The position numbers and the translations under genes are program-made. DNA of 32,000 nt, from positions 30,001 through 62,000 of the forward strand of contig NZ_QEFP02000004.1 in the NCBI RefSeq assembly GCF_003086415.1, read 5' to 3'. Below are positions 4,379 through 28,595 of this stretch, piece after piece. How positions within the stretch are numbered: the stretch's first letter is position 1; the number at the start of each line of letters is the position of its first letter. Source of the DNA: Candidatus Nanobsidianus stetteri. Its GTDB lineage: Archaea > Nanobdellota > Nanobdellia > Nanobdellales > Nanobdellaceae. The notes beneath the pieces are model-generated. The model was not told the origin of the DNA, did not search any database, and saw nothing but the letters and a program-made list of their open reading frames with translations.

Positions 4379-6597
4379 TTCTTCATATTATCTAATATAT
4401 ATTCTTTTACAATTTCATTATATTCTTTAATACTTTTGTCTACATATTGATAAAACACTTCATTATATGCAGAAACAAAATCTGCTTCTAAAATATCTTT
4501 CCTATTTTTTTCTCTTGCTATATCTACTAATATCTTTTTTGACAAACCTATTGTTTCTATCATATTCCATATCCTTTCCCAAGATTTTGACAAATATCTT
4601 ATTCTAGATGCAACAGCCTTTAATATATCAGAATCTCCATTTATTAATTCTAATGTTGGTTCTAAATTATCCTTTTCTGCATCATAAACCATTAAATCAA
4701 CAAAACCTTTTTCTCTTAATGGATCCTGATCCCATAATTTTCTTACTTCAGTTATCCTTAATACCCTTCTATATCTTTTTAAACCCGAAGGTTCTTTAAT
4801 TGGATTTACAATTACTATTATATCTGTAGCTTTAAATGATGTTTTTGGAACTCCCAAATCATTTACAACTCTATCATATACTCCGTAAGGACTTTCTGCA
4901 TGTAAAGTACCCATTACTGCATTCGCTACAGCACCAACTCTCATAGCTTCATACAATGTTAAAGCTTCCTTTGATCTAACTTCTCCAACAATTATAGCAC
5001 TATCTCCCATTCTTAAAGATACTCTCAAACCTTCCTCAGCAGATAATTCTGCAGATTTTAGTGAAAATGGGCTCCTAACTTTCATAGGAACTATATTATA
5101 TCCTATTGATCTGAAAAATTCTGTAGGTATTTCTAAAGTGTCCTCTACAGTTACTATCCTAACTTTTTTAGGTATTTCTAACATTAAAGCTGTTAATAAT
5201 GATGTTTTACCACTTCCCCTTGTACCAGCAATTAAAATTGTCCTTCCATTTGCAACTAAAAAAGATAATAAACCTGCAGCCTGATAATTTAGCATTTTAT
5301 TATCTATAAATAAAGGTAAGGTCCATGGTTTACTTCTATGTCTTCTAATTATATATGATAATCCAAAGGGAGATAATGGTGGAGATAATGCTGCAACTCT
5401 TAATAATATATTATTTCCAATTACTAAATCTGTATCTAAAACAGGATTTGCTTCATCAAAGGGTCTTCCAGATATTAATCTCAATTTTGTGGCCCATGAT
5501 TCTACTTCCCTCCTAGTTGGAGTTACATTTGTAACACACATTTCATATTTGGAATGCTGTAAATATATTGGAGTTATACCCGCTGGTGGGTTTATAAATA
5601 AATCCTCTAAATTTTCATCCAAAACTATCTTTTCTATTATTCCAAAACCAATTGTATATCTAATTATTATACTTTTAATTAATTCCAACCTACTTTTATC
5701 TATATTTATATTATATATAGACATTAATTTCGCTAATATATTATTTAGTATATTATTATATATTTCTCTTAATCTTTCTACATCTAGATAATCTTCCTTT
5801 CTAGGTTCATATTCTTGTAAAATTTCTATTGCCTTATGGGATAAAAATGTTTCTTCAGAGAATATTTTATATTCTTCTGGAAATATATAATATCTAAAAA
5901 CTGTTTCTTCAGGATTTTTTAATATAAAAACTTCTGTATTTTTATCCAATCTATAAGAATCTACAATATTATAACTTTCTGAAATTTTATTTATATATTT
6001 TGTATCTATAAATTTTGGTTTTATATCTCCCAATAATATTCTTCTATATATTTCCCTATTTCCAATTTGATATCCAATTAGAAATGGTTTAATATATTTA
6101 TATATTGGTAATGATTCAAATTTTATTAAAAAATTATCTATTAATGATATTAAATTTGATATTTGATTTTCTAAATCCTTATTATTTTTTAATATTGACA
6201 TCAATTTTCTTTTCATTCTTCTTATAAATATATATGTACCGATTGGATCTTTCAAATATTCCTTATCCAAATAATCTATTATAGTTTTTATTTCTGAATA
6301 TAATGGATTTCCAGTCAATAAATACCTATAATATTCTGATATATTATTTTTAATAGAAAGATATACATCAAGAAAACTATTTAATACTTTTATACTATCT
6401 TCATAATATTCTATATTTTCATCTTGCTCAATTATTATAGTATTTACAAATGGATCTATAGACAATATATTTAATATATATTCCATTATATTTGGATCAT
6501 CTTCAATTGTAGCAATATTATTATAATTTTTAGCATTTACATATAATACTCTTTCTTTTCCATTCATTTTAATTTCATATTGTAAATTATTTAGCAT
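4354..6597 (-). CDS. Type II/IV secretion-family ATPase (FlaI/VirB11/PilB-like) with a long N-terminal extension
   Basis: 747 aa. Walker A 'GTRGSGKTS', Walker B/Asp-box region 'DSAIIVGEVRSKEA' and His-box 'GTLHAESP' are present. About 450 aa precede Walker A. Confidence 0.85.
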   Translation of the reverse strand: MLNNLQYEIKMNGKERVLYVNAKNYNNIATIEDDPNIMEYILNILSIDPFVNTIIIEQDENIEYYEDSIKVLNSFLDVYLSIKNNISEYYRYLLTGNPLYSEIKTIIDYLDKEYLKDPIGTYIFIRRMKRKLMSILKNNKDLENQISNLISLIDNFLIKFESLPIYKYIKPFLIGYQIGNREIYRRILLGDIKPKFIDTKYINKISESYNIVDSYRLDKNTEVFILKNPEETVFRYYIFPEEYKIFSEETFLSHKAIEILQEYEPRKEDYLDVERLREIYNNILNNILAKLMSIYNINIDKSRLELIKSIIIRYTIGFGIIEKIVLDENLEDLFINPPAGITPIYLQHSKYEMCVTNVTPTRREVESWATKLRLISGRPFDEANPVLDTDLVIGNNILLRVAALSPPLSPFGLSYIIRRHRSKPWTLPLFIDNKMLNYQAAGLLSFLVANGRTILIAGTRGSGKTSLLTALMLEIPKKVRIVTVEDTLEIPTEFFRSIGYNIVPMKVRSPFSLKSAELSAEEGLRVSLRMGDSAIIVGEVRSKEALTLYEAMRVGAVANAVMGTLHAESPYGVYDRVVNDLGVPKTSFKATDIIVIVNPIKEPSGLKRYRRVLRITEVRKLWDQDPLREKGFVDLMVYDAEKDNLEPTLELINGDSDILKAVASRIRYLSKSWERIWNMIETIGLSKKILVDIAREKNRKDILEADFVSAYNEVFYQYVDKSIKEYNEIVKEYILDNMKKWIYQKLS

Positions 6598-6635
6598 ATA
6601 AAGATTAATATATATTAAAATATAATAGTTTTACT

Positions 6636-6998
6636 ATGAATGATCCAGAGACACTTAGAAGATTAAAATATTTAGAAGAGAAAATTTCAATATTCAATAA
6701 TATATTACAAACTATGGATGTAACTACTAGAACTTCTTTAGATGATTTTAAATTAGAGATAGAAAATATTAAGAAAGAAATAAATGATATAAAACAAGAA
6801 ATAAATGATATAGAAATAAAAATAAAAGCAATAATGGATCAGTTATCAAATTTTGCTACTACAGATCAATTAAAAATTATAAATTCCATTCTAGATTATA
6901 TAAATCCATTTGATTTTGTTACTAAGAAAGAACTGGATAAATTAATAAAAGAAAAAATTATGGAATACTTTGGTAACTTATACAATCAGAAAAGTTAA
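6636..6998 (+). CDS. Small coiled-coil protein, function unknown
   Basis: 120 aa, heptad-rich ('EIENIKKEINDIKQEINDIEIKIKAI'). No motif I recognise. Confidence 0.45.
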   Translation: MNDPETLRRLKYLEEKISIFNNILQTMDVTTRTSLDDFKLEIENIKKEINDIKQEINDIEIKIKAIMDQLSNFATTDQLKIINSILDYINPFDFVTKKELDKLIKEKIMEYFGNLYNQKS

Positions 6999-18633: not shown

Positions 18634-20283
18634 ATGTATGAACTTATTAATGATATTATAAAAAAGAGCCTTAGAAAGATTACCATAATATTTAGTATAA
18701 TAATTGCATTAATAATTATAATAGGAAAATATTTACCAGTATTAAAAATATATTATCCAATTTTATATTTGTCTGCTGTTGTTTTTTCATTAGAAGTTAT
18801 ATTTCTAGAATATTATAAAACAAAAAAATCATTGGATAAATCTTTACTATATTATATAGCATATTTGTATTCTCTTTCATTTTCTACAAGCAATATTAAA
18901 AGATTATTAGAAATTGCAATTGAAGAAAAAGCAGAATTTAAAGATATAAATTATTATATGTCAAAGATACTTTTTTTAACAAAAAAATATAATTATACAA
19001 TCCCAGAAGCTATAAGATATGTATTACCATATATTCCAAATAGTAATTTCAAAAGTTTTTTAGAAAGATTTGCAACTTCAATTGATATAGGTGAAGAAAT
19101 ATCAGAATTTTTATATAAAGAATATGAGACACAATTGGCAATATATGAAGCAAATTATGAAAAAGGTTTAGAAAATATAAGATTATTAGATGAATTTATA
19201 ATATCTTTATTATCATCTTTAGGATTTGCATTTTCTATAATATTATTTATTCCATTCTTAATAGGTGCAAATATAATATTTTTACTGGCGGATTTCTTTA
19301 TAATATTCATTGTAATTAATTTACTTATATATTATGTATCAAAATATTATATCCCAGATGATGGATTATGGTCTCATTCAAAAGAAAAACCAAAAGAATA
19401 TATTACAATAAGATATTTATTTTACCTTCTATCTTTTTTATCCTATATATTATTTTTAGCATTATTTTTAGTATTAAAATTACAATTATTAGAGGCCTTT
19501 GCAATAGCAGTTACACCATTAGCATATGTAAGTTATAGGATGATATTATTAGAAAGAGCATTAAAAATAAAAGAAAATCATTTCCCAGCATTCTTTAGTA
19601 GTATAATAGAATATTCTGAAATATTTGGAAGTAATCAAACAAAAATATTGGATAATGTTATTATACATGATTTTGGTTTATTAAATGAAGATATTAATAG
19701 ATTAAGGAAAAGGATAAATATAACAAAAAATTATTCCGAATCCTGGAGATATTTTATAGTTGAATTGGGTAGTTCTATCGCAGAAAAAATAATAAAGGTA
19801 TTTGAAAAAGTTTTATCATATAATGGAGATACAAAGAAGGCAGGAGATATGTTATATAATATATTAATAAAGATAATTGAACTTAGGTCTAGAAAATCTC
19901 AATTTATATCAAATTTAAGGGGTATTATATATGGAACATATATAGCATTTATAGCAATTTTATTTATAATTGCTCAAATATTATATTTATTAAACCAGAT
20001 GTTTCAGGGTATATCTACAGCACTCGGTACTGCAGTAGCTCAGATAGGTATAAATATATATACATTTTCAATACCTCTATATATATTGCAAGATTATATA
20101 TTTGTAATATCTATTATTGAAGCTTTTATCTTAGCTGGAACATTAAAAAATATAGATGGGGGATCTAAACTTGGAATGTTCTTAGATGCGACAGTTATGA
20201 TATGGTTAAGTGCACTATTAAATATTGGGGTATATTATTTATTTACATATGTATTCTCTGGTCTATCTTTAGTAAAAATATAA
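18634..20283 (+). CDS. FlaJ/ArlJ-like archaellum or type IV pilus platform membrane protein
   Basis: 549 aa. Two soluble helical T2SS-F-like segments ('FLERFATSIDIGEEISEFL', 'WRYFIVELGSSIAEKI') are each followed by TM clusters. The size fits FlaJ. Confidence 0.6.
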   Translation: MYELINDIIKKSLRKITIIFSIIIALIIIIGKYLPVLKIYYPILYLSAVVFSLEVIFLEYYKTKKSLDKSLLYYIAYLYSLSFSTSNIKRLLEIAIEEKAEFKDINYYMSKILFLTKKYNYTIPEAIRYVLPYIPNSNFKSFLERFATSIDIGEEISEFLYKEYETQLAIYEANYEKGLENIRLLDEFIISLLSSLGFAFSIILFIPFLIGANIIFLLADFFIIFIVINLLIYYVSKYYIPDDGLWSHSKEKPKEYITIRYLFYLLSFLSYILFLALFLVLKLQLLEAFAIAVTPLAYVSYRMILLERALKIKENHFPAFFSSIIEYSEIFGSNQTKILDNVIIHDFGLLNEDINRLRKRINITKNYSESWRYFIVELGSSIAEKIIKVFEKVLSYNGDTKKAGDMLYNILIKIIELRSRKSQFISNLRGIIYGTYIAFIAILFIIAQILYLLNQMFQGISTALGTAVAQIGINIYTFSIPLYILQDYIFVISIIEAFILAGTLKNIDGGSKLGMFLDATVMIWLSALLNIGVYYLFTYVFSGLSLVKI

Positions 20284-20723
20284 TTTATTTTTCTTTCCTT
20301 TGGTATAAAATCTTTCAATATATTATTTTTAACATAAACACTACATAAAATATCATTATTATCTTTTGCTATATAAAAACCATTTTCATAATTTTTTTCC
20401 AATTTTATATTTTCATTATATTTATAAAAAAGATTTTCCTTTTTTATTTCAATATTTTTATTAGAATTTATTCCAAAAATTTGTGCACCTTCTATACTAA
20501 ATCTGTATATATTATTTTTCTCTATTTTAATTACATATAAACCATATTTTTTTATATATTTTTCATCTAAAAAATCTGGAAAATTTTTATTAAACATATA
20601 TATTTTATCTTTATTAATAAAAAATCTATATTTCTTTATTATTGATTTATCTATATTTGTATTATAATATTCTTCTATTTTCTTAAATATTTCTTCTATA
20701 TTCTTTTTATTTAATTCTTTCAT
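20235..20723 (-). CDS. Small pre-PUA/PUA-like RNA-binding protein (Nip7-like?)
   Basis: 162 aa. The pattern 'GLYVIKIEKNN..FSIEGAQIF...ILCSVYVKNNILKDFIPKERK' resembles Nip7/RsmF C-terminal PUA-like modules. It overlaps rfcL by 4 nt (same operon). The call is weak. Confidence 0.35.
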   Translation of the reverse strand: MKELNKKNIEEIFKKIEEYYNTNIDKSIIKKYRFFINKDKIYMFNKNFPDFLDEKYIKKYGLYVIKIEKNNIYRFSIEGAQIFGINSNKNIEIKKENLFYKYNENIKLEKNYENGFYIAKDNNDILCSVYVKNNILKDFIPKERKINYIFTKDRPENTYVNK

Positions 20724-21946
20724 AATTTTTCTATAGCACTCTTTATATATGATATTTCATTTTCATTAAATCCTAATATTTTTGCATATTCTTTTCCTAC
20801 TTTTTCATTTTCTTTCATTAAAACAATTAATGTATTTATATATACTTCTCTAATTCTCTTTTTTGATGTATGAACCTTCTTTTGTAAATTTTTTGATAAT
20901 TCTTCAATTTTTTCTCTTATTTCTTTATTTTGTGATAATTTTTTTACATATTGTGGCATTCTATATTTTGTAAATTTATTATATCTTTTTTCTTTTGCCA
21001 ATGCAACACCAGCATACATTAATGTTGTAAAATATTTTAATAGATCCCAATATTGTCTTCTATAAATTCTTCCATAAAATACAACTGCCAAAGATAACCA
21101 ATTATAAGCTTCATATATTTCTTTTATATTTTCATATTCATTTGATATATTCTCTTCAACCCATGCTTTAATTTCTTCAGGGTCCATATCTACATCTGCA
21201 AATGGTAATGTAGCACCCATTATTGTATTTGCCTTAAACATCTGACCCAATGCTCTAAATATTGTAATTTCTCTTTCTCTATAACCTAAAACTTCTAAAT
21301 CTTTCAATGTAATATGGTTAGTCATTGTTGCCAATGCTTGTAGATCATTTATTGCACTTCTTAAATCTCCAGAAGATCTTTCTACAAGTGCAGATAATGC
21401 ATTTTCATCAATTGTTATCTTTTCATTTGCACAAATTCTCTTTAATTGTCTTATTATATCGGCATTTGATAATTTTTTGAATTCAACCATATCACATGAA
21501 TCTCTTAATTTCTTAAATTTTGGATCCCATGGATCATTTGCAGTCAATATTATTGGCCACCTTGATTCTTCTATTATTTTTACCAATGCCCCAACTCCTC
21601 CTCTATCTTGAAATCCTGCTAATCCATCTACTTCATCAACCAAAATTATCCTTCCTTTTTTGAAAAATGGTTTTCCCTTTATTGCTTCTCCCAATTTCTC
21701 ATGTATAACCCTTGCATTTCTATTATCTGAAGCATTTAATTCTACAACTTCATAATTTAAATCATTTGCAATTGCATATATTGATGATGTTTTTCCAACA
21801 CCTGGAGGTCCATATATTAATAATGCCTTTTTACTTACATTTGGATATTTTTCAATAAAGGATTTTATTTTTCCAATAGCCTCTGATTGATTAATTATTT
21901 CATTAATATGTTTTGGTGCATATTTTTTTATCCATGGCTCAACCAT
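20720..21946 (-). CDS. rfcL: Replication factor C large subunit
   Basis: 408 aa with 'WIKKYAPK', Walker A 'GPPGVGKTS', 'ELNASDNR' and Walker B 'ILVDEVDGL'. Confidence 0.85.
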   Translation of the reverse strand: MVEPWIKKYAPKHINEIINQSEAIGKIKSFIEKYPNVSKKALLIYGPPGVGKTSSIYAIANDLNYEVVELNASDNRNARVIHEKLGEAIKGKPFFKKGRIILVDEVDGLAGFQDRGGVGALVKIIEESRWPIILTANDPWDPKFKKLRDSCDMVEFKKLSNADIIRQLKRICANEKITIDENALSALVERSSGDLRSAINDLQALATMTNHITLKDLEVLGYREREITIFRALGQMFKANTIMGATLPFADVDMDPEEIKAWVEENISNEYENIKEIYEAYNWLSLAVVFYGRIYRRQYWDLLKYFTTLMYAGVALAKEKRYNKFTKYRMPQYVKKLSQNKEIREKIEELSKNLQKKVHTSKKRIREVYINTLIVLMKENEKVGKEYAKILGFNENEISYIKSAIEKL

Positions 21947-22007
21947 TATTTATATTTTTATATCAAAATATATAGATTAATATTAGGTTATCTAATAGTT
22001 ACTATTT

Positions 22008-22060
22008 GATGATAGATAGTAACGATAGATTTAAAAATTTTTTCCAACAATAATTATAGT
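22008..22060 (+). promoter_or_regulatory. Conserved array promoter, copy A: GATAGAT-N6-GATAGAT direct repeat abutting a TTTAAAAA (TATA) box
   Basis: GATAGAT lies at 22011-22017 and 22024-22030, and TTTAAAAA at 22030-22037, 31 nt before the ATG at 22061. Positions 22010-22042 are identical to 22796-22828 (33 nt). Confidence 0.6.
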
Positions 22061-22591
22061 ATGGTAGATGAAGATCTATCAGAATTAGAAAAAATGTTAA
22101 AAAGAGCCCAAATAGATAAAGAATATAGAAGGGATAATAAAGATTATTTAGAAGAAACAAAAAAGTTATATGATGAAATATTAAAAAGAGCTCCACAAGC
22201 AGAAACAACATTAGAACTACTATTAAAAAGAATAAATAGCTGTGACCTATGCGATAAAGGAGAAGAATCTGGTGTATTTAAAGCTAGTATAATGAGTGCT
22301 TTTAGAGAATATGTTGAAGAAATAGATCCTACAAAACCGGATTATAAACAGAAAGTAAATAATTTAGAGTATAGTATGTTACATTTATCAACTAAATTGG
22401 TATTTACTGCAACATATATAACCTTCTTAGAAGAATTGCAAAATAATCTACGTAAATATGATTCATTAGAAGAAGCATATAGGTGGACATCTGAATACAT
22501 TAAATCAGCTATAGGATATCTACTTGAAGATCCTATAGGACACAGAAAAAGATTTGAAGAGTATATGCAAGTTGACAAATTATTAAGGTAG
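22061..22591 (+). CDS. Array paralogue 1: helical protein of unknown function
   Basis: 176 aa starting 'MVDEDL', with no TM or signal sequence. It carries the C-terminal family motif 'IGYLLEDPIGHRKRFEEYMQV'. Confidence 0.65.
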   Translation: MVDEDLSELEKMLKRAQIDKEYRRDNKDYLEETKKLYDEILKRAPQAETTLELLLKRINSCDLCDKGEESGVFKASIMSAFREYVEEIDPTKPDYKQKVNNLEYSMLHLSTKLVFTATYITFLEELQNNLRKYDSLEEAYRWTSEYIKSAIGYLLEDPIGHRKRFEEYMQVDKLLR

Positions 22592-22637
22592 ATTATTATA
22601 TAAAAAATAGAGAGTTCTTACATAAAAATATAAAATC

Positions 22638-22643
22638 TTTTTT
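22638..22643 (+). terminator. Oligo-T tract (archaeal intrinsic terminator candidate) in the conserved motif ATCTTTTTTATTTAAT
   Basis: A T6 run lies 47 nt after the stop of paralogue 1. The same motif follows paralogues 2 and 5. Confidence 0.4.
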
Positions 22644-22656
22644 ATTTAATTTTTAT

Positions 22657-22698
22657 TTAATGACTAAATAAAGATAAAAGTCTACTTAATATAACACT
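22657..22698 (-). pseudogene. Relic copy of the last ~13 codons plus stop of the 139-aa membrane-protein gene
   Basis: The reverse complement reads '...VILSRLLSLFSH*', against the real C-terminus 'GILSGLFSLFSH*' at 26872..26910. No upstream ORF is attached. Confidence 0.65.
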
Positions 22699-22793
22699 CT
22701 TTTTGTTGTATATTTTTATCCAGCTTAATCATTATTTAATATTTCTAATTAGAATATTAAAATATGTAGGATATATCTGCATAACTTCTATCT

Positions 22794-22845
22794 AGTGATA
22801 GATAGTAACGATAGATTTAAAAATTTTTCTAACAATATTTTTAGT
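22794..22845 (+). promoter_or_regulatory. Conserved array promoter, copy B
   Basis: GATAGAT lies at 22797-22803 and 22810-22816, and TTTAAAAA at 22816-22823, 30 nt before the ATG at 22846. Confidence 0.6.
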
Positions 22846-24042
22846 ATGGTAGATACCTCCTCATATCAAAAACAATCTAAAACATCGGAAGAATTAGTAA
22901 CGAAAAAACTCAATAAAGCTATAGCAGCATATACTTCTTATCTATTTACAAAGAGTAACGTACTGGAGAGAGTATCAGAAAAAGAAATACGCGCATTAAG
23001 ACCATTAGAAAGAATAATAAAAAAGTTAGATGAATTTGGTGAATGTAAAAGTTTTTTAACCAATGATCCAGAAACTCTCCAAAAGTGTATAGATGAATAT
23101 GAATTTAAGGATGGCTTACTTAGAGGTATTTCTGCATATCACATATGGGAACGTACACCAGAACAAATTGAAGAATTTACAAAAGGTTTAGAAGCATTGT
23201 CAAGAGGAGGAAAACGAGCAATAAAAGATTTATATCAACGATTCCAGCAATATAAAATTACTTCAGTACCTCAGGAAGATTTAGATCCCAGATTATTTGC
23301 AATAATACCCGAAATTAGTGCTATTGAATCTCTTATACTTCGATATTTAGAGAATCCCAGAGATTATAGAGAACGAGTTAGTAAATATTTAGGAAAAAAA
23401 CCATTAGAAGCAAGAATAGAAAAAGGAAAAGAAGTAGAATCATATGATGAATTAAGGAGGGCCATAAAGGGATACACCCTTTACTTATCTTACAAAGAAT
23501 TTGCACTTAAGGTAGTATCAGAACATATACCAGAAGCTTTACCATCGTTAGTAAAATTAATAGAAAACTTAGAAGAATGGAGAAAGTACAGAATTTTTTC
23601 ATATATCGATAAAAAATATCTCAAAGAGTATGCAGATAAATATTACGTTATGGCTCACATCCTTTCAATTATTCCAGAATGGTGGTTATCAAAGCATGAG
23701 CATACACTAGAGGAAATTAAAAGATTTACAGAAGGTTTGGAATTTTTAGCAAGAAAAGGCAAAGAAATAGCAAATGGTCTATATAAACTTTATAAAGAAG
23801 CATATAGATTGGCATTAGAAGATATATCAAAAGGTAAGCAAACTATATATCCATATGAGCTAGAAAATGTACGCTCAATTGCGGCTGGAAGGATAAGATA
23901 TCTTCTAGAAAAGTATTTTAGGAATCCTGAAGAGTATGAAGATCAACTTATGAAATATGCAGGATTGAAGCCATTAGACTGGTTTGATAGAGCAATATGT
24001 AACTTATATGGCGGCTGTAAAACAGAAAATCAAAGTACATAA
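22846..24042 (+). CDS. Array paralogue 2: two tandem family modules fused in one protein
   Basis: 398 aa from ATG 22846 ('MVDTSS', the same first codons as paralogue 1). The ORF-track GTG start at 22795 merely translates the conserved promoter. The internal repeat is about aa 15-190 vs 200-385, for example 'FTKGLEALSRGGKRAIKDLYQRF' / 'FTEGLEFLARKGKEIANGLYKLY' and 'RYLENPRDYRERVSKYLGKKPLE' / 'KYFRNPEEYEDQLMKYAGLKPLD'. Confidence 0.7.
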   Translation: MVDTSSYQKQSKTSEELVTKKLNKAIAAYTSYLFTKSNVLERVSEKEIRALRPLERIIKKLDEFGECKSFLTNDPETLQKCIDEYEFKDGLLRGISAYHIWERTPEQIEEFTKGLEALSRGGKRAIKDLYQRFQQYKITSVPQEDLDPRLFAIIPEISAIESLILRYLENPRDYRERVSKYLGKKPLEARIEKGKEVESYDELRRAIKGYTLYLSYKEFALKVVSEHIPEALPSLVKLIENLEEWRKYRIFSYIDKKYLKEYADKYYVMAHILSIIPEWWLSKHEHTLEEIKRFTEGLEFLARKGKEIANGLYKLYKEAYRLALEDISKGKQTIYPYELENVRSIAAGRIRYLLEKYFRNPEEYEDQLMKYAGLKPLDWFDRAICNLYGGCKTENQST

Positions 24043-24060
24043 GACTTTTTGATAAGATCA

Positions 24061-24066
24061 TTTTTT
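24061..24066 (+). terminator. Oligo-T terminator candidate after paralogue 2
   Basis: A T6 run in 'atcattttttatttaat', 19 nt after the stop. Confidence 0.4.
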
Positions 24067-24197
24067 ATTTAATCTTTTATTTAATGACTAAATAAGAAGA
24101 AAAATTTTCTTGATATACTAAACTTTTGCTATATATTTTTATCCATAATTCAACTCTAGATATTAAAATTATGGGATATATTGTATAACTTCTATCT

Positions 24198-24248
24198 GGT
24201 AATAGATAAAAACAATAAGTTTAAAATTCTTCCAATATAATATATATT
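24198..24248 (+). promoter_or_regulatory. Conserved array promoter, copy C (diverged repeat, TTTAAAAT box)
   Basis: 'aATAGATaaaaacAATAAGTttaaaat'. The box at 24220-24227 lies 29 nt before the ATG at 24249. Confidence 0.5.
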
Positions 24249-24887
24249 ATGGTTAAAACACTAGATGAAAAAATAGAAGAAGCTAAACGAAAAATAATAA
24301 CAACAGAATCCAAATATGAGGATTATGCAACAGCAATAAGACATGCATATGAACAGATAAGAGAAGTAGATCAAGAAAGTATTCCATTATTGTGGAATTT
24401 AATAAAAACTATGGAAAAATTTTCAACCTTTGACATAGAACTTAAAGAGTTCATATTATCCAATATACGTAAAGTGGCATCTTATGTTGAATTATATCCA
24501 TATTTCAAAGAAAGAATTATTCAAAACTTAAGAAGAGGTATAGAAATCTTAACAAATGAGGAAGGACTTCTTAAGATGAATGAATTATATTCCCTTATAT
24601 TAGATGGAAAAATACCTTTACAAAATTTTGACAAATATTTAAAAGAAGTACATGATTGGGCCTATAGAAATAACCTAAAATGGGATCAAGAAACTAAAAT
24701 AAAGTATGCACGGCAAAAAGGAGCATATGAGTACATTGGAGTTATTATAAAAGGTTTATTAATGGATCCAACTAAGTATGAACCATTATATAAACAACTT
24801 ATAGAAACATATGATTTAGAAAAATTTGTTGAACATTTACAAAAAGAATATGAAAAGTTAATCCCAAAAAAAGATGTAACTTTTTAA
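24249..24887 (+). CDS. Array paralogue 3: helical protein of unknown function
   Basis: 212 aa with family motifs 'LRRGIEILTNEEGLLKMNELYSL' and 'IIKGLLMDPTKYEPLYKQLIETYDL'. Confidence 0.65.
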   Translation: MVKTLDEKIEEAKRKIITTESKYEDYATAIRHAYEQIREVDQESIPLLWNLIKTMEKFSTFDIELKEFILSNIRKVASYVELYPYFKERIIQNLRRGIEILTNEEGLLKMNELYSLILDGKIPLQNFDKYLKEVHDWAYRNNLKWDQETKIKYARQKGAYEYIGVIIKGLLMDPTKYEPLYKQLIETYDLEKFVEHLQKEYEKLIPKKDVTF

Positions 24888-24975
24888 GATATAATCATAG
24901 CATATTTTTAATAAAACTTTTCTAATTTTTTAGTGATTAAATAAAGAGAAAAATTTCCTTAATATACTAAACTTT

Positions 24976-25006
24976 TTGTTATATCTTTTATCCATGGCTC
25001 AACCAT
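24976..25006 (-). pseudogene. Relic copy of the rfcL start codon and first ~7 codons
   Basis: The reverse complement reads ATG GTT GAG CCA TGG ATA AAA (MVEPWIK, identical to rfcL codons 1-7). It then diverges and stops after 15 codons ('MVEPWIKDITKSLVY*'). Confidence 0.7.
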
Positions 25007-25067
25007 TATTTAATATTTCTAATTAGAATATTAAAGTATGTATAATGAATTTAATATAATTATTGCC

Positions 25068-25119
25068 TAATAGTAGATAATAACGATAAACTTAAAAAAT
25101 TTTTAATAATTAATTAGTT
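25068..25119 (+). promoter_or_regulatory. Conserved array promoter, copy D
   Basis: 'tagTAGATaataacGATAAACttaaaaaa'. The box at 25091-25099 lies 29 nt before the ATG at 25120. Confidence 0.5.
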
Positions 25120-25860
25120 ATGGCGGACAGACCCTCTGATAAGAAACTTCTCGCCGAACTGTTTGCTAATGTATATCATAACATAGTCTCTGCCGAACGA
25201 CATCAATGTAAATCATCTTTAGAGGATACACTAGCCGAATTAAATCGACAAATAGTATATATCGAAGTTGAAGTATTTGAAAATATGGGTGCTGAAATGT
25301 TCTATAAAGTGAATAAAAAACTTCGACCATCATTAGATAAATTAATGCGAACTATAAGAGAATGGATAAAATACGGAAAATCTTTAGAACCATCAATACC
25401 GATTATTAATAGATTATATTATACAAATATATGGAATATTATAGATAAATGCTATTTTGCAACCAGTATATTAAGACCTATTAATCAATACTTAGAAGCG
25501 GTAAGTTTCGAATCTAACAAATCGAATTTTGAAAAGAAATTTGATAATTTAAATAAAGTTATAGGTTATTTATTATCTCTAGAGATACTTAATGCTTTGT
25601 ATGCAAGATTTTATAATAACGCTAAAGAAGTACTTGATAAATTAGATGAACCAATTGGAAATGATAAATTTGAAGATAGACCAATTAGCTATTCAGCAGG
25701 ACTTAAGGATGTTATTGATGAAATTAGGCTTAGTTTTCAGGAAGCATCTAATGATATTGAAGGTATCATAAAGTATCTATTAAAAAATCCTGAAGAAAAT
25801 ATAAAACAAGTTAACAAAATTATAGGAATTAGTGAAGATTATAGAAATAATAAAAAATAG
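25120..25860 (+). CDS. Array paralogue 4: helical protein of unknown function
   Basis: 246 aa with the C-terminal family motif 'IIKYLLKNPEENIKQVNKIIGI'. The 5' end is unusually GC-rich for this window (26 G+C in 25121-25180). Confidence 0.65.
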   Translation: MADRPSDKKLLAELFANVYHNIVSAERHQCKSSLEDTLAELNRQIVYIEVEVFENMGAEMFYKVNKKLRPSLDKLMRTIREWIKYGKSLEPSIPIINRLYYTNIWNIIDKCYFATSILRPINQYLEAVSFESNKSNFEKKFDNLNKVIGYLLSLEILNALYARFYNNAKEVLDKLDEPIGNDKFEDRPISYSAGLKDVIDEIRLSFQEASNDIEGIIKYLLKNPEENIKQVNKIIGISEDYRNNKK

Positions 25861-26061
25861 TTTGATATGTATAAAACTGAAAGAATTCTAGCATCTTTAG
25901 AGGCTTACCATTACTAAAAGATATGCGTATTTTTTATCCTTAGTTTAGTCATTATTTTTATTTTAGAATATTAAAGTTACATTGAATATATTAAAATAGT
26001 TACTATTTGATGCTAAATAAAAACAATAAATTTAAAAATTTTTCTAACAATATTCTTTAGT
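25861..26061. repeat. Composite array spacer R4 (most diverged)
   Basis: The rfcL relic 'ttttatccttagtttagtcattattttta' lies at 25932-25960. The promoter block 'aatagttactatttgatg' (25995-26012) matches copy A (21995-22012). Confidence 0.7.
26009..26061 (+). promoter_or_regulatory. Conserved array promoter, copy E
   Basis: 'tgCTAAATaaaaacAATAAATttaaaaatttttctaacaatatt'. TTTAAAAA at 26031-26038 lies 31 nt before the ATG at 26062. The tail 'tttttctaacaatatt' is shared with copy B. Confidence 0.55.
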
Positions 26062-26823
26062 ATGTCAAAGACCTCCAACAATTTAAATCCAGAAGCCTAT
26101 TTTCAGATATTTAAATTATTAAGTACATTTAGTACAAGGATGTATGAGGAAGAGTTAGGAAAAGAGTTTGTAAAAGAATTTGGAGAAAAATTAATAGAAT
26201 ATGCAAAAAATTCATATGAAGAGTATCAAAAAGAGTTACAACAAGCTCATAACAAACTACCTCAAACATATAGAGAGATGCTAGATGTATTACTAAAAAA
26301 GATAGATGACTCAGTTCCATGTAAAGAAGAAAATTGTCTAAATTCATATGAATGGTCGGATATTTATCAATATATATATAAAAATCACTTTAAGGCCAAT
26401 GTAATAAGAATTATTAACAAACATCTCGAAGGATTGGATTCTGCACTACCAAATTATAATAAAGAAATTAAAAATATAAGAGATGTTTTAATAACCCTCT
26501 CAGAGACGGAGGTAAATAAAACATTGTTTGCAGCTTATATGTTAACAGAATACAATGCCTTAATCGATATCCTAAGCAATCCAGCAAACTCATCAATTAA
26601 TGATAAAATATTTAAACAGATAAAAAATTTAAAGGCATCTAATGATGTTCAAAACTATATTAATGCTATCCAAAACTATATTGAGAAACAAATGGAATGG
26701 ATTGACTTATCATATAAAAAGGCATCTGAATATATTGAAGATACTATAGAAGAGCTTTTCCACAATAATGCAGAAGGATTTGTCGTAAAAATGTTAAGTG
26801 CATTATTTAAATATATTGCTTAA
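26062..26823 (+). CDS. Array paralogue 5: helical protein of unknown function
   Basis: 253 aa and the most diverged member. Its C-terminus 'IEDTIEELFHNNAEGFVVKMLSAL' occupies the position of the family motif. It has the same promoter and 3' cassette as the others. Confidence 0.6.
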   Translation: MSKTSNNLNPEAYFQIFKLLSTFSTRMYEEELGKEFVKEFGEKLIEYAKNSYEEYQKELQQAHNKLPQTYREMLDVLLKKIDDSVPCKEENCLNSYEWSDIYQYIYKNHFKANVIRIINKHLEGLDSALPNYNKEIKNIRDVLITLSETEVNKTLFAAYMLTEYNALIDILSNPANSSINDKIFKQIKNLKASNDVQNYINAIQNYIEKQMEWIDLSYKKASEYIEDTIEELFHNNAEGFVVKMLSALFKYIA

Positions 26824-26863
26824 ATATAATAGAAATAGTTTATAAGATAAATTGGTATAAATC

Positions 26864-26869
26864 TTTTTT
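26864..26869 (+). terminator. Oligo-T terminator candidate after paralogue 5 (convergent with the 139-aa gene)
   Basis: A T6 run in 'aatcttttttatttaat', the same motif as after paralogue 1. Confidence 0.4.
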
Positions 26870-26871
26870 AT

Positions 26872-27291
26872 TTAATGACTAAATAAAGAGAAAAGTCCAC
26901 TTAATATACCACCTTTACTTTCAACTATTTGGCATGGTAAAATTGCCTCATATTGATTACCATTCACAGTATAATATACTCTTACATATGCATTTAATAT
27001 AATAATATTATTATTTACACTGCATGCATTCATAGATCCATAATTTATATTTCCTAAATTGCATGTTGAATTTTCATAGAAATTATATACTGTTACATTT
27101 TCCAAATTTTGTTTTGCAGTAATTATAACAAGGGATGTTCCATTTGCGTATTGACAACTATATGTAAAATATTCCAAATATGGAGGTAAATAAGATGTTA
27201 CATAATAAATATATATTGCATATAGAACAACCAATATAAAAGCTGCTACACCAACCCAGATTACAAATTTTGGTATCTTTGATATATCCAT
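26872..27291 (-). CDS. Small N-terminally anchored, sequon-rich protein (probably extracellular), function unknown
   Basis: 139 aa with one N-terminal TM helix ('FVIWVGVAAFILVVLYAIYIYYV'), 5 Cys, and the sequons NGT, NVT and NST. Its 3' end is the source of relics found in the array spacers. Confidence 0.5.
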   Translation of the reverse strand: MDISKIPKFVIWVGVAAFILVVLYAIYIYYVTSYLPPYLEYFTYSCQYANGTSLVIITAKQNLENVTVYNFYENSTCNLGNINYGSMNACSVNNNIIILNAYVRVYYTVNGNQYEAILPCQIVESKGGILSGLFSLFSH

Positions 27292-27295
27292 AAAA

Positions 27296-27610
27296 TTAAT
27301 TTTGATCTACATATATATAAACATAGATATATTTGTTCCCCCTGTCTTCGATCTTCATATTTTTTATAATCTCTTCATATTTTTTACTATCTATATCAAA
27401 TAGATCTGGATATTTATTTAATATATAATCCATTATCAATCTTTTTATCATAATATCCTCATTCTTATGCACATTTTCAGAATTATACTCATCTAAAATC
27501 CCTTCTATTATATATTTTGGAATCTTAAATTCATATTCAATATTATACGGCATGTAAGATTTTACTATTTTCCAAAATATAAATGATTGCTTTATATTCT
27601 TGAATTTCAA
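27296..27610 (-). CDS. Hypothetical protein
   Basis: 104-aa ORF packed tightly between neighbours, with no motif I recognise. An internal start at 'MPYNIEYEF' is possible. Confidence 0.4.
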   Translation of the reverse strand: MKFKNIKQSFIFWKIVKSYMPYNIEYEFKIPKYIIEGILDEYNSENVHKNEDIMIKRLIMDYILNKYPDLFDIDSKKYEEIIKNMKIEDRGNKYIYVYIYVDQN

Positions 27611-27626
27611 AAATGATTATCAAAAA

Positions 27627-28595
27627 TTATTTTCTACTTTGTAAACCTCTAAGTCCTATATATGCTAGCAAAGCACCTAATTGTATTATTGGATCTGAAC
27701 CCTCTAATAATCTATATTCTATCTCTCCAGCATAATATATTATATCTAATTTTTCTTTTTCTGGTATATTCATTGAATAAACTTCCTTAGATAAATATTT
27801 AATTATATCTTCTCCAGCAAGACCATATTTTATCATTAAATCAATTAATTTTTCTCTAGCCTCAACAAATTTTCCTTCATATGCCAATTTTAATACTTCT
27901 TGTAATTCCTGTGGTTTTGCTACAGAGGCAACTTCATATATTAATTCTGGAGTTATATCTTTAGAATATAAAGCCGCAGCTTGTAACATATTTATTGATT
28001 TTCTCATATCACCTTCTGAAATATAATATATTGCTTCTAATGCATCATCGGTTATATTTAAATTTTCTTTTTCAGCTATTGACCTTAATAAATCGAATAC
28101 ATCCTTTTTATCTAATTGTTTAAATCTAAATATAACAGTTCTAGATTGAATTGGTTCTATAATCTTTGATGAATAATTACATGCCAATATAAATCTTGTT
28201 ATTGAAGAATATTCTTCCATTATTCTTCTCAAAGCTTGTTGTGCGTCTCTTGTCATTGCATCTGCTTCATCCAAAAATACAATTTTAAATGGAAAATCTC
28301 CAATTGGTTTTGTTCTTGCAAATTCCTTTACCTTTTCTCTTATTACATCAATCCCTCTATCATCTGAAGCATTTAATTGTAATACATTTTGTTCCCATTT
28401 ATCCCCATACAATTCTCTTGCTAATGCTAATGCAGCAGTTGTTTTTCCAACACCCGCAGGTCCTGCAAATAATAAATGAGGCATATTTTTATTTTCTACA
28501 AATGCCTTCAATCTTTTTACTATTTCATCTTGTCCTTTTATATCATCCAATCTTTTTGGTCTATATTTTTCAGTCCATATTTCATTCTCTGGCAT
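27627..28595 (-). CDS. rfcS: Replication factor C small subunit
   Basis: 322 aa with '[13 protein letters not shown]', Walker A 'GPAGVGKTT', '[10 protein letters not shown]', Walker B 'FLDEADAMT' and 'QSRTVIFRF'. Confidence 0.95.

Follow-up and report, generated by a model that had tools for sequence, protein, structure and literature searches.

Results

Gene content of the array

The sequence analyzed here is a 32,000-nt stretch of Candidatus Nanobsidianus stetteri DNA (GC ~23%), referred to below as the window, and its region 21947-26871 contains a tandem array of five cassettes (P1 to P5), each with one open reading frame (ORF). Two of the array proteins match NCBI entries for Candidatus Nanobsidianus stetteri at 100% identity, in keeping with an origin in the Nanopusillus/Nanobsidianus group of Nanoarchaeota. 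The array is inserted between the gene for the RFC large subunit (RFC-L) and g139, both on the - strand, and its five cassettes, which amount to six modules, are all on the + strand. The initial annotation, made from the sequence alone, had listed five + strand ORFs of 176, 398, 212, 246, and 253 aa, and all were confirmed in position and length (Table 1). The length of P2 is counted from its ATG, as the longest ORF call reaches a GTG at 22795, inside the promoter block; its two modules (about aa 1-186 and 187-398) are fused via a disordered linker (aa 177-198). When 153 cassette ORFs from 89 related loci were compared, they fell into three families, namely A (P3-like), B (P2-like, with one or two modules), and C (P1-, P4-, and P5-like), so that the window array can be written C-B-A-C-C.

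Cassette content and order differ between strains

Variation of the array is apparent from a population set of 61 complete arrays, drawn from genomes and metagenomes of relatives. The distance separating RFC-L from g139 ranged from 17 to 4925 bp, the latter value being that of the window, which carries the largest complete array in the set. Five arrays had no intact cassette, 22 had one, 17 had two, eight had three, six had four, and three had five, and up to 7-8 haplotypes were found in a single metagenome. The loci closest to the window, L001 and L002, have RFC-L proteins 100% identical to that of the window (the counterpart of Nps_02350 of N. acidilobi) and flanks that are 97-98% identical to it, with the left-hand identity of 98% ending at about position 22069 and the right-hand identity of 97.7% resuming at 26871. 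Despite these shared flanks, the array contents are A-C-B-A-C-C and A-B, vs. C-B-A-C-C in the window. The content is B-A in the cultured N. acidilobi, with a closed PacBio genome, and A-C-B in the single-cell genome of Nst1, such that the closed genome, the PCR-checked single amplified genome (SAG) assembly, and the window present three mutually different architectures. Order can also be inverted: the published ortholog table pairs Nps_02355 with Nst1_466 and Nps_02360 with Nst1_464, and A precedes B in L023, whereas B precedes A in the window. All 161 hidden Markov model (HMM) matches in ~700 kb of related sequence lay inside the RFC-L/g139 gap on the + strand, none of them away from this site, and divergent members checked separately share it.

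Similarity blocks between arrays start at a g139-like or RFC-L-like element and end at the ATG of the next cassette (+2 to +10 nt). The left 100 nt of a junction tracks the family of the upstream cassette in 50 of 65 cases (21 expected), the right 100 nt tracks that of the downstream cassette in 44 of 65 (23 expected), and the best match of a junction is almost never within its own array. Taken together, the block ends and the junction halves that follow their cassettes indicate that the unit of exchange consists of promoter, coding sequence (CDS), and 3' tail, and that crossovers are spread across the junction. The initial annotation had proposed that recombination or gene conversion homogenizes the flanks of the cassettes. 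Recombination at the conserved spacers is strongly supported, both by the 29 different family orders among the 61 complete arrays and by the blocks that end at cassette ATGs. Homogenization of spacers within an array by gene conversion is not, since best matches rarely lie in the same array and the halves travel with the adjacent cassettes. Nor did related genomes prove to hold the same five genes, as they carry different sets.

Anatomy of the junctions

The conserved blocks of the spacers are copied from the two flanking genes: they reproduce the beginning of RFC-L together with its promoter, and the final codons of g139. Read along the + strand, a typical internal spacer consists of a cassette-specific oligo-T 3' tail, a copy of the g139 3' end, a copy of the RFC-L 5' end, and a promoter block. 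The g139-like element corresponds to the last ~15-20 codons of g139 and starts at the g139 stop codon in 38 of the 45 detectable cases; the RFC-L-like element corresponds to the first ~7 codons plus the upstream promoter and has a start equivalent to window position 21925 in 17 of 23 cases. The copy in spacer S3 matches the true RFC-L start at 27/27 nt, with an intact ATGGTTGAGCCATGGATAAAA on the - strand. The three repeats on which the initial annotation had based its view of the spacers were verified base by base: 33/33 nt for 22010-22042 vs. 22796-22828, 38/39 nt for 22730-22768 vs. 25004-25042, and 27/27 nt for 21926-21952 vs. 24986-25012. An Rfam search of the array and its spacers gave no match.

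The 72-nt promoter block consists of an inverted repeat (GTTACTAT-N10-ATAGTAAC or CTATC-N4-GATAG) followed by TTTAAAAA, and its 28-mer core occurs in the array only (0 expected in shuffles). The cassette ATG lies 29-31 nt past the start of the TATA box in 127 of the 150 unique promoter-block copies, a spacing that implies leaderless mRNAs; the same TATA-to-ATG distance recurs at 10 of the 28 other genes of the window. Fuzzy matching counted 111 promoter blocks across the arrays, vs. 119 intact ORFs (at least 150 aa). The expectation that each cassette would have its own promoter was borne out, in that none of the five units lacks a promoter, an ATG, or a stop codon, and each cassette is shown to be organized as a transcription unit of its own, with an inverted-repeat candidate operator, a predicted TATA box, and oligo-T after the stop.

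Table 1. Positions of the array features and of the two flanking genes in the window.
Feature	Position	Strand	Remarks
RFC large subunit (RFC-L)	20720..21946	-	Left conserved flank; first ~7 codons and promoter are the source of the RFC-L-like spacer element
Spacer S0	21947..22060	.	Divergent promoter region; RFC-L promoter leftward, promoter block D1 rightward
Promoter block D1, copy 1	21985..22056	+	GTTACTAT-N10-ATAGTAAC inverted repeat and TATA box TTTAAAAA; ATG ~30 nt downstream
Cassette P1	22061..22591	+	Family C, 176 aa
Spacer S1	22592..22845	.	Oligo-T terminator, g139-like element, RFC-L-like element, D1 copy 2, in this order
S1 g139 3'-end-like element	22653-22716		
S1 RFC-L 5'/promoter-like element	22723-22768		Includes palindrome TTCTAATTAGAA at 22743-22754
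Promoter block D1, copy 2 (S1)	22771-22842		
Cassette P2	22846..24042	+	Family B, 398 aa from ATG
Spacer S2	24043..24248	.	Terminator, g139-like element, degraded RFC-L-like element, D1 copy 3
S2 g139-like element	24077-24140		
S2 RFC-L-like element	24131-24154		Degraded
Promoter block D1, copy 3 (S2)	24175-24246		
Cassette P3	24249..24887	+	Family A, 212 aa
Spacer S3	24888..25119	.	g139-like element, RFC-L-like element, palindrome, D1 copy 4
S3 g139-like element	24926-24989		
S3 RFC-L-like element	24986-25031		
S3 palindrome	25017-25028		
Promoter block D1, copy 4 (S3)	25046-25117		
Cassette P4	25120..25860	+	Family C, 246 aa
Spacer S4	25861..26061	.	Distinct 3' tail without g139-like element
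S4 RFC-L-like element	25932-25977		
Promoter block D1, copy 5 (S4)	25986-26057		
Cassette P5	26062..26823	+	Family C, 253 aa
Spacer S5	26824..26871	.	3' tail with oligo-T run; abuts the g139 stop codon
g139	26872..27291	-	Right conserved flank; 139 aa, single transmembrane segment, arCOG05419; the g139-like spacer element derives from its last ~15-20 codons

Several further features of the junctions were observed. The copies of the RFC-L core promoter and start in S1, S3, and S4 are on the - strand and face back into the preceding cassette, and the one in S3 (24986-25012) leads into a short ORF, MVEPWIKDITKSLVY, that ends at a stop codon. Such copies could drive antisense transcription over the 3' ends of the cassettes, and the RFC-L promoter is expected to be strong because RFC-L is among the most abundant N. 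acidilobi proteins. The RFC-L-promoter-like elements of S1 and S3 both contain the perfect 12-bp palindrome TTCTAATTAGAA (0.06 expected by chance). In L007 this palindrome likewise precedes the true RFC-L, and L005 has a version of it there that differs at one position (TTATAATTAGAA); a regulator of RFC-L may act at this site. The N. acidilobi family-A cassette Nps_02360, which adjoins g139 (L005 12010-12190; see also L006), has a different promoter (AAATTTGAAAAATTTCTTAATATATTAATTAATTATAATG), and upstream of it lies a longer g139 3' copy without an RFC-L fragment. Therefore more than one type of junction exists.

The statement that the spacers are better conserved than the genes stood for one comparison and fell for the other. 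Among paralogous units, spacers are 67-86% identical (65-70% in shuffled controls) and CDS nucleotide similarity is not above the control. When orthologous units are compared across strains, junctions (90-96% identical) and CDSs (92-94%) are conserved to about the same degree. Since the excess is confined to paralogs, the junctions are either constrained as promoters and terminators or kept similar by crossing-over at the level of the population. Semi-global pairwise identity is a poor measure in DNA of 16-25% GC, where shuffled controls already reach 61-74%, and the block structure was relied upon instead.

Junctions as scars of a tandem duplication

One of the arrays without cassettes, L010, belongs to a more distant member of the Nanopusillaceae whose RFC-L is 76% identical, and here g139 and RFC-L are adjacent; the bare junction measures 36 bp between the BLAST-matched gene ends, or 17 bp by extrapolation. 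As the spacers join the end of g139 to the start of RFC-L, a tandem duplication is indicated whose end points lay just inside the two flanking genes, and the spacer junction is thereby shown to have the composition of a duplication scar. In the distant relative, g139 adjoins RFC-L. In the Nanopusillus/Nanobsidianus clade a gene lies between both, and a segment reaching from ~7 codons inside RFC-L to ~15-20 codons inside g139 has been tandemly duplicated. The consequence is the order found in most internal spacers, namely a 3' fragment of g139, a 5' fragment of RFC-L with its promoter, and then the cassette promoter.

The genes around the array are also arranged in a way that bears on its origin. 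RFC-S (27627-28595), g104 (27296-27610), g139, RFC-L, and the NIP7/PUA-like gene all share the - strand, and in L010 (11190-11290) g139 directly adjoins RFC-L. Their order is probably that of an ancestral operon, RFC-S-g104-g139-RFC-L-NIP7-like, and given the contiguity in L010, the array has split what appears to be an ancestral replication-factor operon. RFC-L would then have needed to use or acquire a promoter of its own in S0.

The cassette proteins form one orphan superfamily

The cassette proteins had been described as lacking transmembrane segments, signal peptides, and recognizable domains, and as rich in E, K, L, and R, and each of these points was upheld. The maximum Kyte-Doolittle value (window of 19) is 0.57-1.48 in the five proteins vs. 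2.68 in the single-transmembrane g139, the published N. acidilobi gene table lists neither a transmembrane domain nor a signal peptide for the orthologs, E+K+L+R make up 32-43% of residues, and none of the five has a Pfam match. With BLASTP, clear similarity is confined to the two halves of P2 (P2a/P2b, 32% identity at E 7e-19) and to the pair P4/P5 (27% at E 6e-10), the remaining pairs being weak. Profile-profile comparison linked all three families: A-B at 99.5% with metagenome alignments and 98% (E 3e-13) with database-only alignments, B-C at 98.8 and 93% (E 3e-7), and A-C at 97.8 and 58% (E 1e-4), respectively. Part of the metagenome A-B value reflects an N-terminal peptide in common and ORFs that had been extended into promoter sequence (MIDxNDKFKNF...), which raise it artificially, hence the repeat with database alignments. 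The alignments are colinear and cover both the central and the C-terminal motif through which the modules had been proposed to be related, thus corroborating that relationship; motifs common to the families are PSL..LI..hE.W, I.NL..Gh..L, ..LY.., and the C-terminal I..hIk.LL.NP..Y. Members of a fourth, rare group (D) are recognized by the superfamily profile as well.

An HMM search of 1.84 billion protein cluster representatives returned only 53 members, and those with a named source are "hypothetical proteins" of Nanopusillus or of hot-spring metagenomes. As judged from these searches, the superfamily is restricted to the Nanopusillaceae. AlphaFold models P3 as an all-helical protein of nine helices (predicted local distance difference test [pLDDT] 92, predicted template modeling score [pTM] 0.87) and P2 as two helical modules joined by a disordered linker (pLDDT 81, pTM 0.81). 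Foldseek detected no significant similarity to PDB entries for either the P2 or the P3 model, nor to viral structures for P3. PDB sequence profiles likewise gave no significant match, the best match to an immunity protein having an E of 0.18. In PADLOC, P1 had a coiled-coil-type match to LmuB (E 8e-4), P5 matched DrmB at E 0.9, and the rest matched nothing meaningful; PHROGs gave no meaningful match either. A housekeeping family, which would have spoken for an ordinary role, was not among the matches.

Some sequence features are confined to certain families. Family B has an invariant cysteine pair (C67 and C81 of P2, window ~23044-23088), and P1 "CDLC" and P5 "CKEENC" (CxxC and Cx4C) occur in the equivalent loop after helix 2; family A is without these cysteines. 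In B, P1, and P5 they could form a metal site or a disulfide in the cytoplasm of a hyperthermophile. The N-terminal peptide M(V/I)DTSSYQNQSKTLEE is common to some A and B members and not to others of the same families (e.g., window 22846-22893; P0080, P0123, and P0031), a patchiness which suggests that 5' ends are mosaics produced by crossovers just inside the CDS. A terminal amphipathic motif, LxxFxxxL/I, is found in A (P3 aa 188-197, with L190, F193, and L197 invariant in the family) and in B (P2 aa 375-385), and family C is without it. The RFC neighbors prompted a reading of this C-terminal helix as a PCNA-binding PIP-box, which is not supported, as the canonical Q and spacing are missing.

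Evolutionary rate, constraint, and expression

The ratios of non-synonymous to synonymous rates (dN/dS, Nei-Gojobori) between the window and other loci were 0.36-1.29 for the cassettes (mostly 0.5-1.0), 0.00-0.18 for RFC-L, and 0.04-0.24 for g139, with cassette dS of the same order as flank dS. The initial annotation was thus right about fast protein divergence, the non-synonymous rate being 5-10 times that of the neighboring genes. Its further suggestion of diversifying selection was not demonstrated at the level of sites. A parsimony count over 47 family-A sequences gave a tree-wide dN/dS of 0.92 and 14 significantly conserved sites, and in the same, underpowered test (similar to single-likelihood ancestor counting) dN exceeded dS at p < 0.05 in only 5 of 212 sites, no more than expected by chance. 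Neutral simulation at the base composition of the locus gave a probability of P ≤ 0.006 that an ORF stays open at 10% divergence and P < 0.0005 at 20%, and the cassette ORFs are accordingly kept open by selection and are not junk.

Broken cassettes are few. There are in-frame stops in L027 and L047 (gap ~778 bp), frameshifts in L058 and in the split cassette L001 c5/c6 (5996-6854), and an internally deleted remnant in L006 (11224-11444). A 74-aa P5-like fragment lies at L011 11871-12095.

Expression can be gauged from the published proteome of the N. acidilobi co-culture (PMC4935971), in which the family-B cassette Nps_02355 stands at spectral rank 55 of 656 proteins, and RadA and RFC-L are abundant.

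Neighboring genes

Other neighbors of the array are RFC subunits, the NIP7-like gene, FlaJ, and a small transmembrane protein. A 549-aa polytopic membrane protein is encoded at 18634-20283 (+), ~1.7 kb from the array, and at its 3' end the gene shares 49 nt with the NIP7-like gene (20235-20723), which is convergent to it. FlaJ/TadC homologs and hypothetical proteins have been reported to have elevated densities of non-synonymous single-nucleotide polymorphisms in Nanoarchaeota (Jarett 2018, PMC6142677).

Discussion

A probable recombination-shuffled cassette array

Taken together, these results suggest, with a probability of about 70%, that the locus is a tandem cassette array shuffled by recombination, variable in copy number, and encoding soluble all-helical proteins specific to the Nanopusillaceae. 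Its architecture and the role of recombination are the firmest part of this reading and are very likely correct. The variation would be generated by homologous recombination at the junctions, both as RadA-dependent unequal crossing-over within a lineage and as allele exchange between strains, with the ~200-nt junctions providing the only nucleotide homology between units. The cassette proteins would bind or inhibit rather than act as enzymes, following a variable partner of host or viral origin, with frequency-dependent selection keeping the repertoire varied; this functional part is tentative, and we hold it at clearly less than even odds. Roles in host or virus interaction, or as an immunity-like array, had been put forward at the outset, and they fit the pattern while being speculation. 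A more specific version, which we regard as doubtful, would have the array be a strain-specific repertoire of cytoplasmic effectors or inhibitors directed against host (Acidilobus/Sulfolobales) or viral factors, for example inhibitors of host defense delivered via cell-cell contact. Such a repertoire would be analogous to anti-CRISPR or immunity gene arrays and co-regulated through the shared palindromic operator, and the cassette set would help to set the host range.

A number of observations weigh against this reading. The proteins have neither a signal peptide nor a transmembrane segment, and a host-facing role would therefore require a further route of export or transfer. Of the two N. acidilobi cassettes, Nps_02355 alone has its protein in the proteome, the family-A cassette Nps_02360 being undetected (PMC4935971). 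No recombination intermediates were seen that would directly attest the mechanism. The strains with zero cassettes (L006 and L010), the pseudogenized cassettes (L027, L047, and L058), and the split cassette L001 c5/c6 show that the genes are dispensable, and relaxed constraint would equally account for a dN/dS near 1. Since metagenome assemblers can mis-join at repeated junctions, chimeras could be present among the architectures; this concern is limited by the junction copies being 67-86% identical rather than exact, and by the disagreement that already exists among the closed PacBio genome, the PCR-checked SAG assembly, and the window. A third limiting point is that the set is probably biased toward short complete arrays, as assemblies tend to break in long ones. 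An assembly artifact as the source of the locus itself was rejected, as the locus recurs in many independent metagenomes as well as in a closed genome and a SAG assembly.

The chief rival, which we judge unlikely, is a nearly neutral churn of paralogs, in which junction repeats favor unequal crossing-over among dispensable, sequence-tolerant helical proteins that serve a generic (structural or chaperone-like) role under weak constraint, with no arms race. It would account for the tree-wide dN/dS of 0.92, the chance level of sites with dN above dS, the pairwise omega values of up to ~1, the zero-copy strains and pseudogenized cassettes, and the lack of a recognizable functional domain. It is harder to reconcile with ORFs that stay open far beyond the neutral expectation, with the 14 significantly conserved sites and the motifs common to the families, with AlphaFold models that are confident and based on co-evolution, and with the abundant expression of one member; moreover, drift alone would hardly maintain so many divergent alleles and architectures within single populations of an organism with a streamlined 0.6-Mb genome that is reported to have few lineage-specific expansions (PMC3655853). 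A new type of island dedicated to antiviral defense (or to anti-defense/immunity), which would take the place of CRISPR-Cas, is improbable. CRISPR-Cas is absent from the published Nst1 assembly, which is unusual for a hyperthermophile (PMC3655853), and fast-evolving proteins together with polymorphism in presence and copy number resemble defense islands, but the cassettes encode small all-helical bundles with no nuclease, ATPase, or sensor domain, have no partner genes, and match no PADLOC or PHROG family beyond the coiled-coil-type match at E 8e-4.

Site-specific capture in the manner of an integron or a tandem integrated element would have circular cassettes enter at a g139/RFC-L att site that is duplicated each time, and would explain why copies of one junction bound every unit, why boundaries at the ATG are sharp, why the same site is occupied in all genomes, and why the perfect 12-bp palindrome TTCTAATTAGAA recurs in two junctions. 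We consider it very improbable, given that breakpoints are spread over the junction with no single core site, that junction copies identical at only 67-86% are not exact att repeats, that no family member was found elsewhere, and that a single superfamily with promoters of its own is unlike captured foreign cassettes. No integrase or recombinase Pfam was found among the called genes of the L001 contig or within +/-8 kb of the L090 cassette. A mobile element or provirus was likewise rejected, there being no integrase among these genes and no viral hallmark genes.

Comparison with known systems

The locus is best described as a flexible tandem paralog island, since it combines same-strand tandem homologs, an end-fusing repeat junction, and copy-number polymorphism between conserved flanks; what makes it unusual is the genome that hosts it, the orphan superfamily, and the legible duplication scar. 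Its nearest likeness is to the nuSa-alpha lpl and ssl clusters of Staphylococcus aureus, which are tandem paralog clusters expanded by unequal crossing-over. Shared features are paralogs in the same orientation at one site between core genes, a number and order that vary with the strain, conserved intergenic substrates for recombination, and fast-evolving proteins. Unlike those clusters, the array resides in the 0.6-Mb genome of an archaeal ectosymbiont, encodes cytoplasmic proteins with no lipobox or signal peptide and no match to a known fold in the libraries searched, and has a junction repeat in which a promoter is combined with fragments of both flanking genes, of which one is essential.

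Integron arrays also place single-gene cassettes in line at a fixed site, in variable number and order and with a repeated element between them, but here the cassettes are all mutually homologous and have their own promoters, IntI was not among the called genes in the neighborhoods covered above, and no attC-like hairpin local within a spacer was present among the 25 longest inverted-repeat pairs listed. Orphan immunity gene arrays are known from polymorphic-toxin immunity clusters and from the recombinase-associated acquired interbacterial defense (AID) systems of Bacteroidales. Like these, the array has tandem genes for small cytoplasmic binding proteins (putative here), conserved intergenic sequences, and strain-variable repertoires of the kind thought to be kept by antagonistic interactions. 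Unlike these, it consists of one lineage-specific superfamily, with no recombinase, no adjacent toxin gene, no known Imm family, and no Imm/SUKH-type Pfam match.

In antigenic-variation systems such as Borrelia vls and Neisseria pilS, one expression site is served by promoterless silent cassettes, and surface proteins are varied. The array resembles them in its diverged homologous cassettes and in diversity driven by recombination, and differs from them in that each cassette comes with its own promoter and start codon and none encodes a surface protein; a single expression locus with promoterless partial cassettes was not found in the array. As regards a diversity-generating retroelement, there was no reverse transcriptase Pfam among the neighboring genes, and a repeat search revealed no pair resembling a template and a variable repeat within the CDSs.

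Significance

Nanoarchaeota are obligate ectosymbionts with minimal genomes. The locus is not described in the relevant nanoarchaeal genome and population papers (including PMC3655853 and PMC6142677), and the read mapping of Jarett 2018 would probably miss cassettes this divergent. The Nst1 genome is poor in lineage-specific expansions and has no CRISPR-Cas (Podar 2013, PMC3655853), and against that background the array is an exception, one which encodes proteins, expressed in the case of one member, with no match in the fold libraries searched. It also offers a natural example of how tandem duplication and recombination at promoter-bearing junctions can build a cassette system without a dedicated recombinase.

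As its content differs between co-occurring strains, the array is a strong candidate locus for host or virus interaction, and it bears on what determines the hosts that Nanoarchaeota are able to exploit and on how they cope with viruses without CRISPR. Since the array occupies one site that is easy to amplify by PCR and lies between highly conserved RFC genes, it is a ready marker for strain typing, and its cassettes provide a short list of candidate interaction determinants that can be tested in the N. acidilobi-Acidilobus co-culture.

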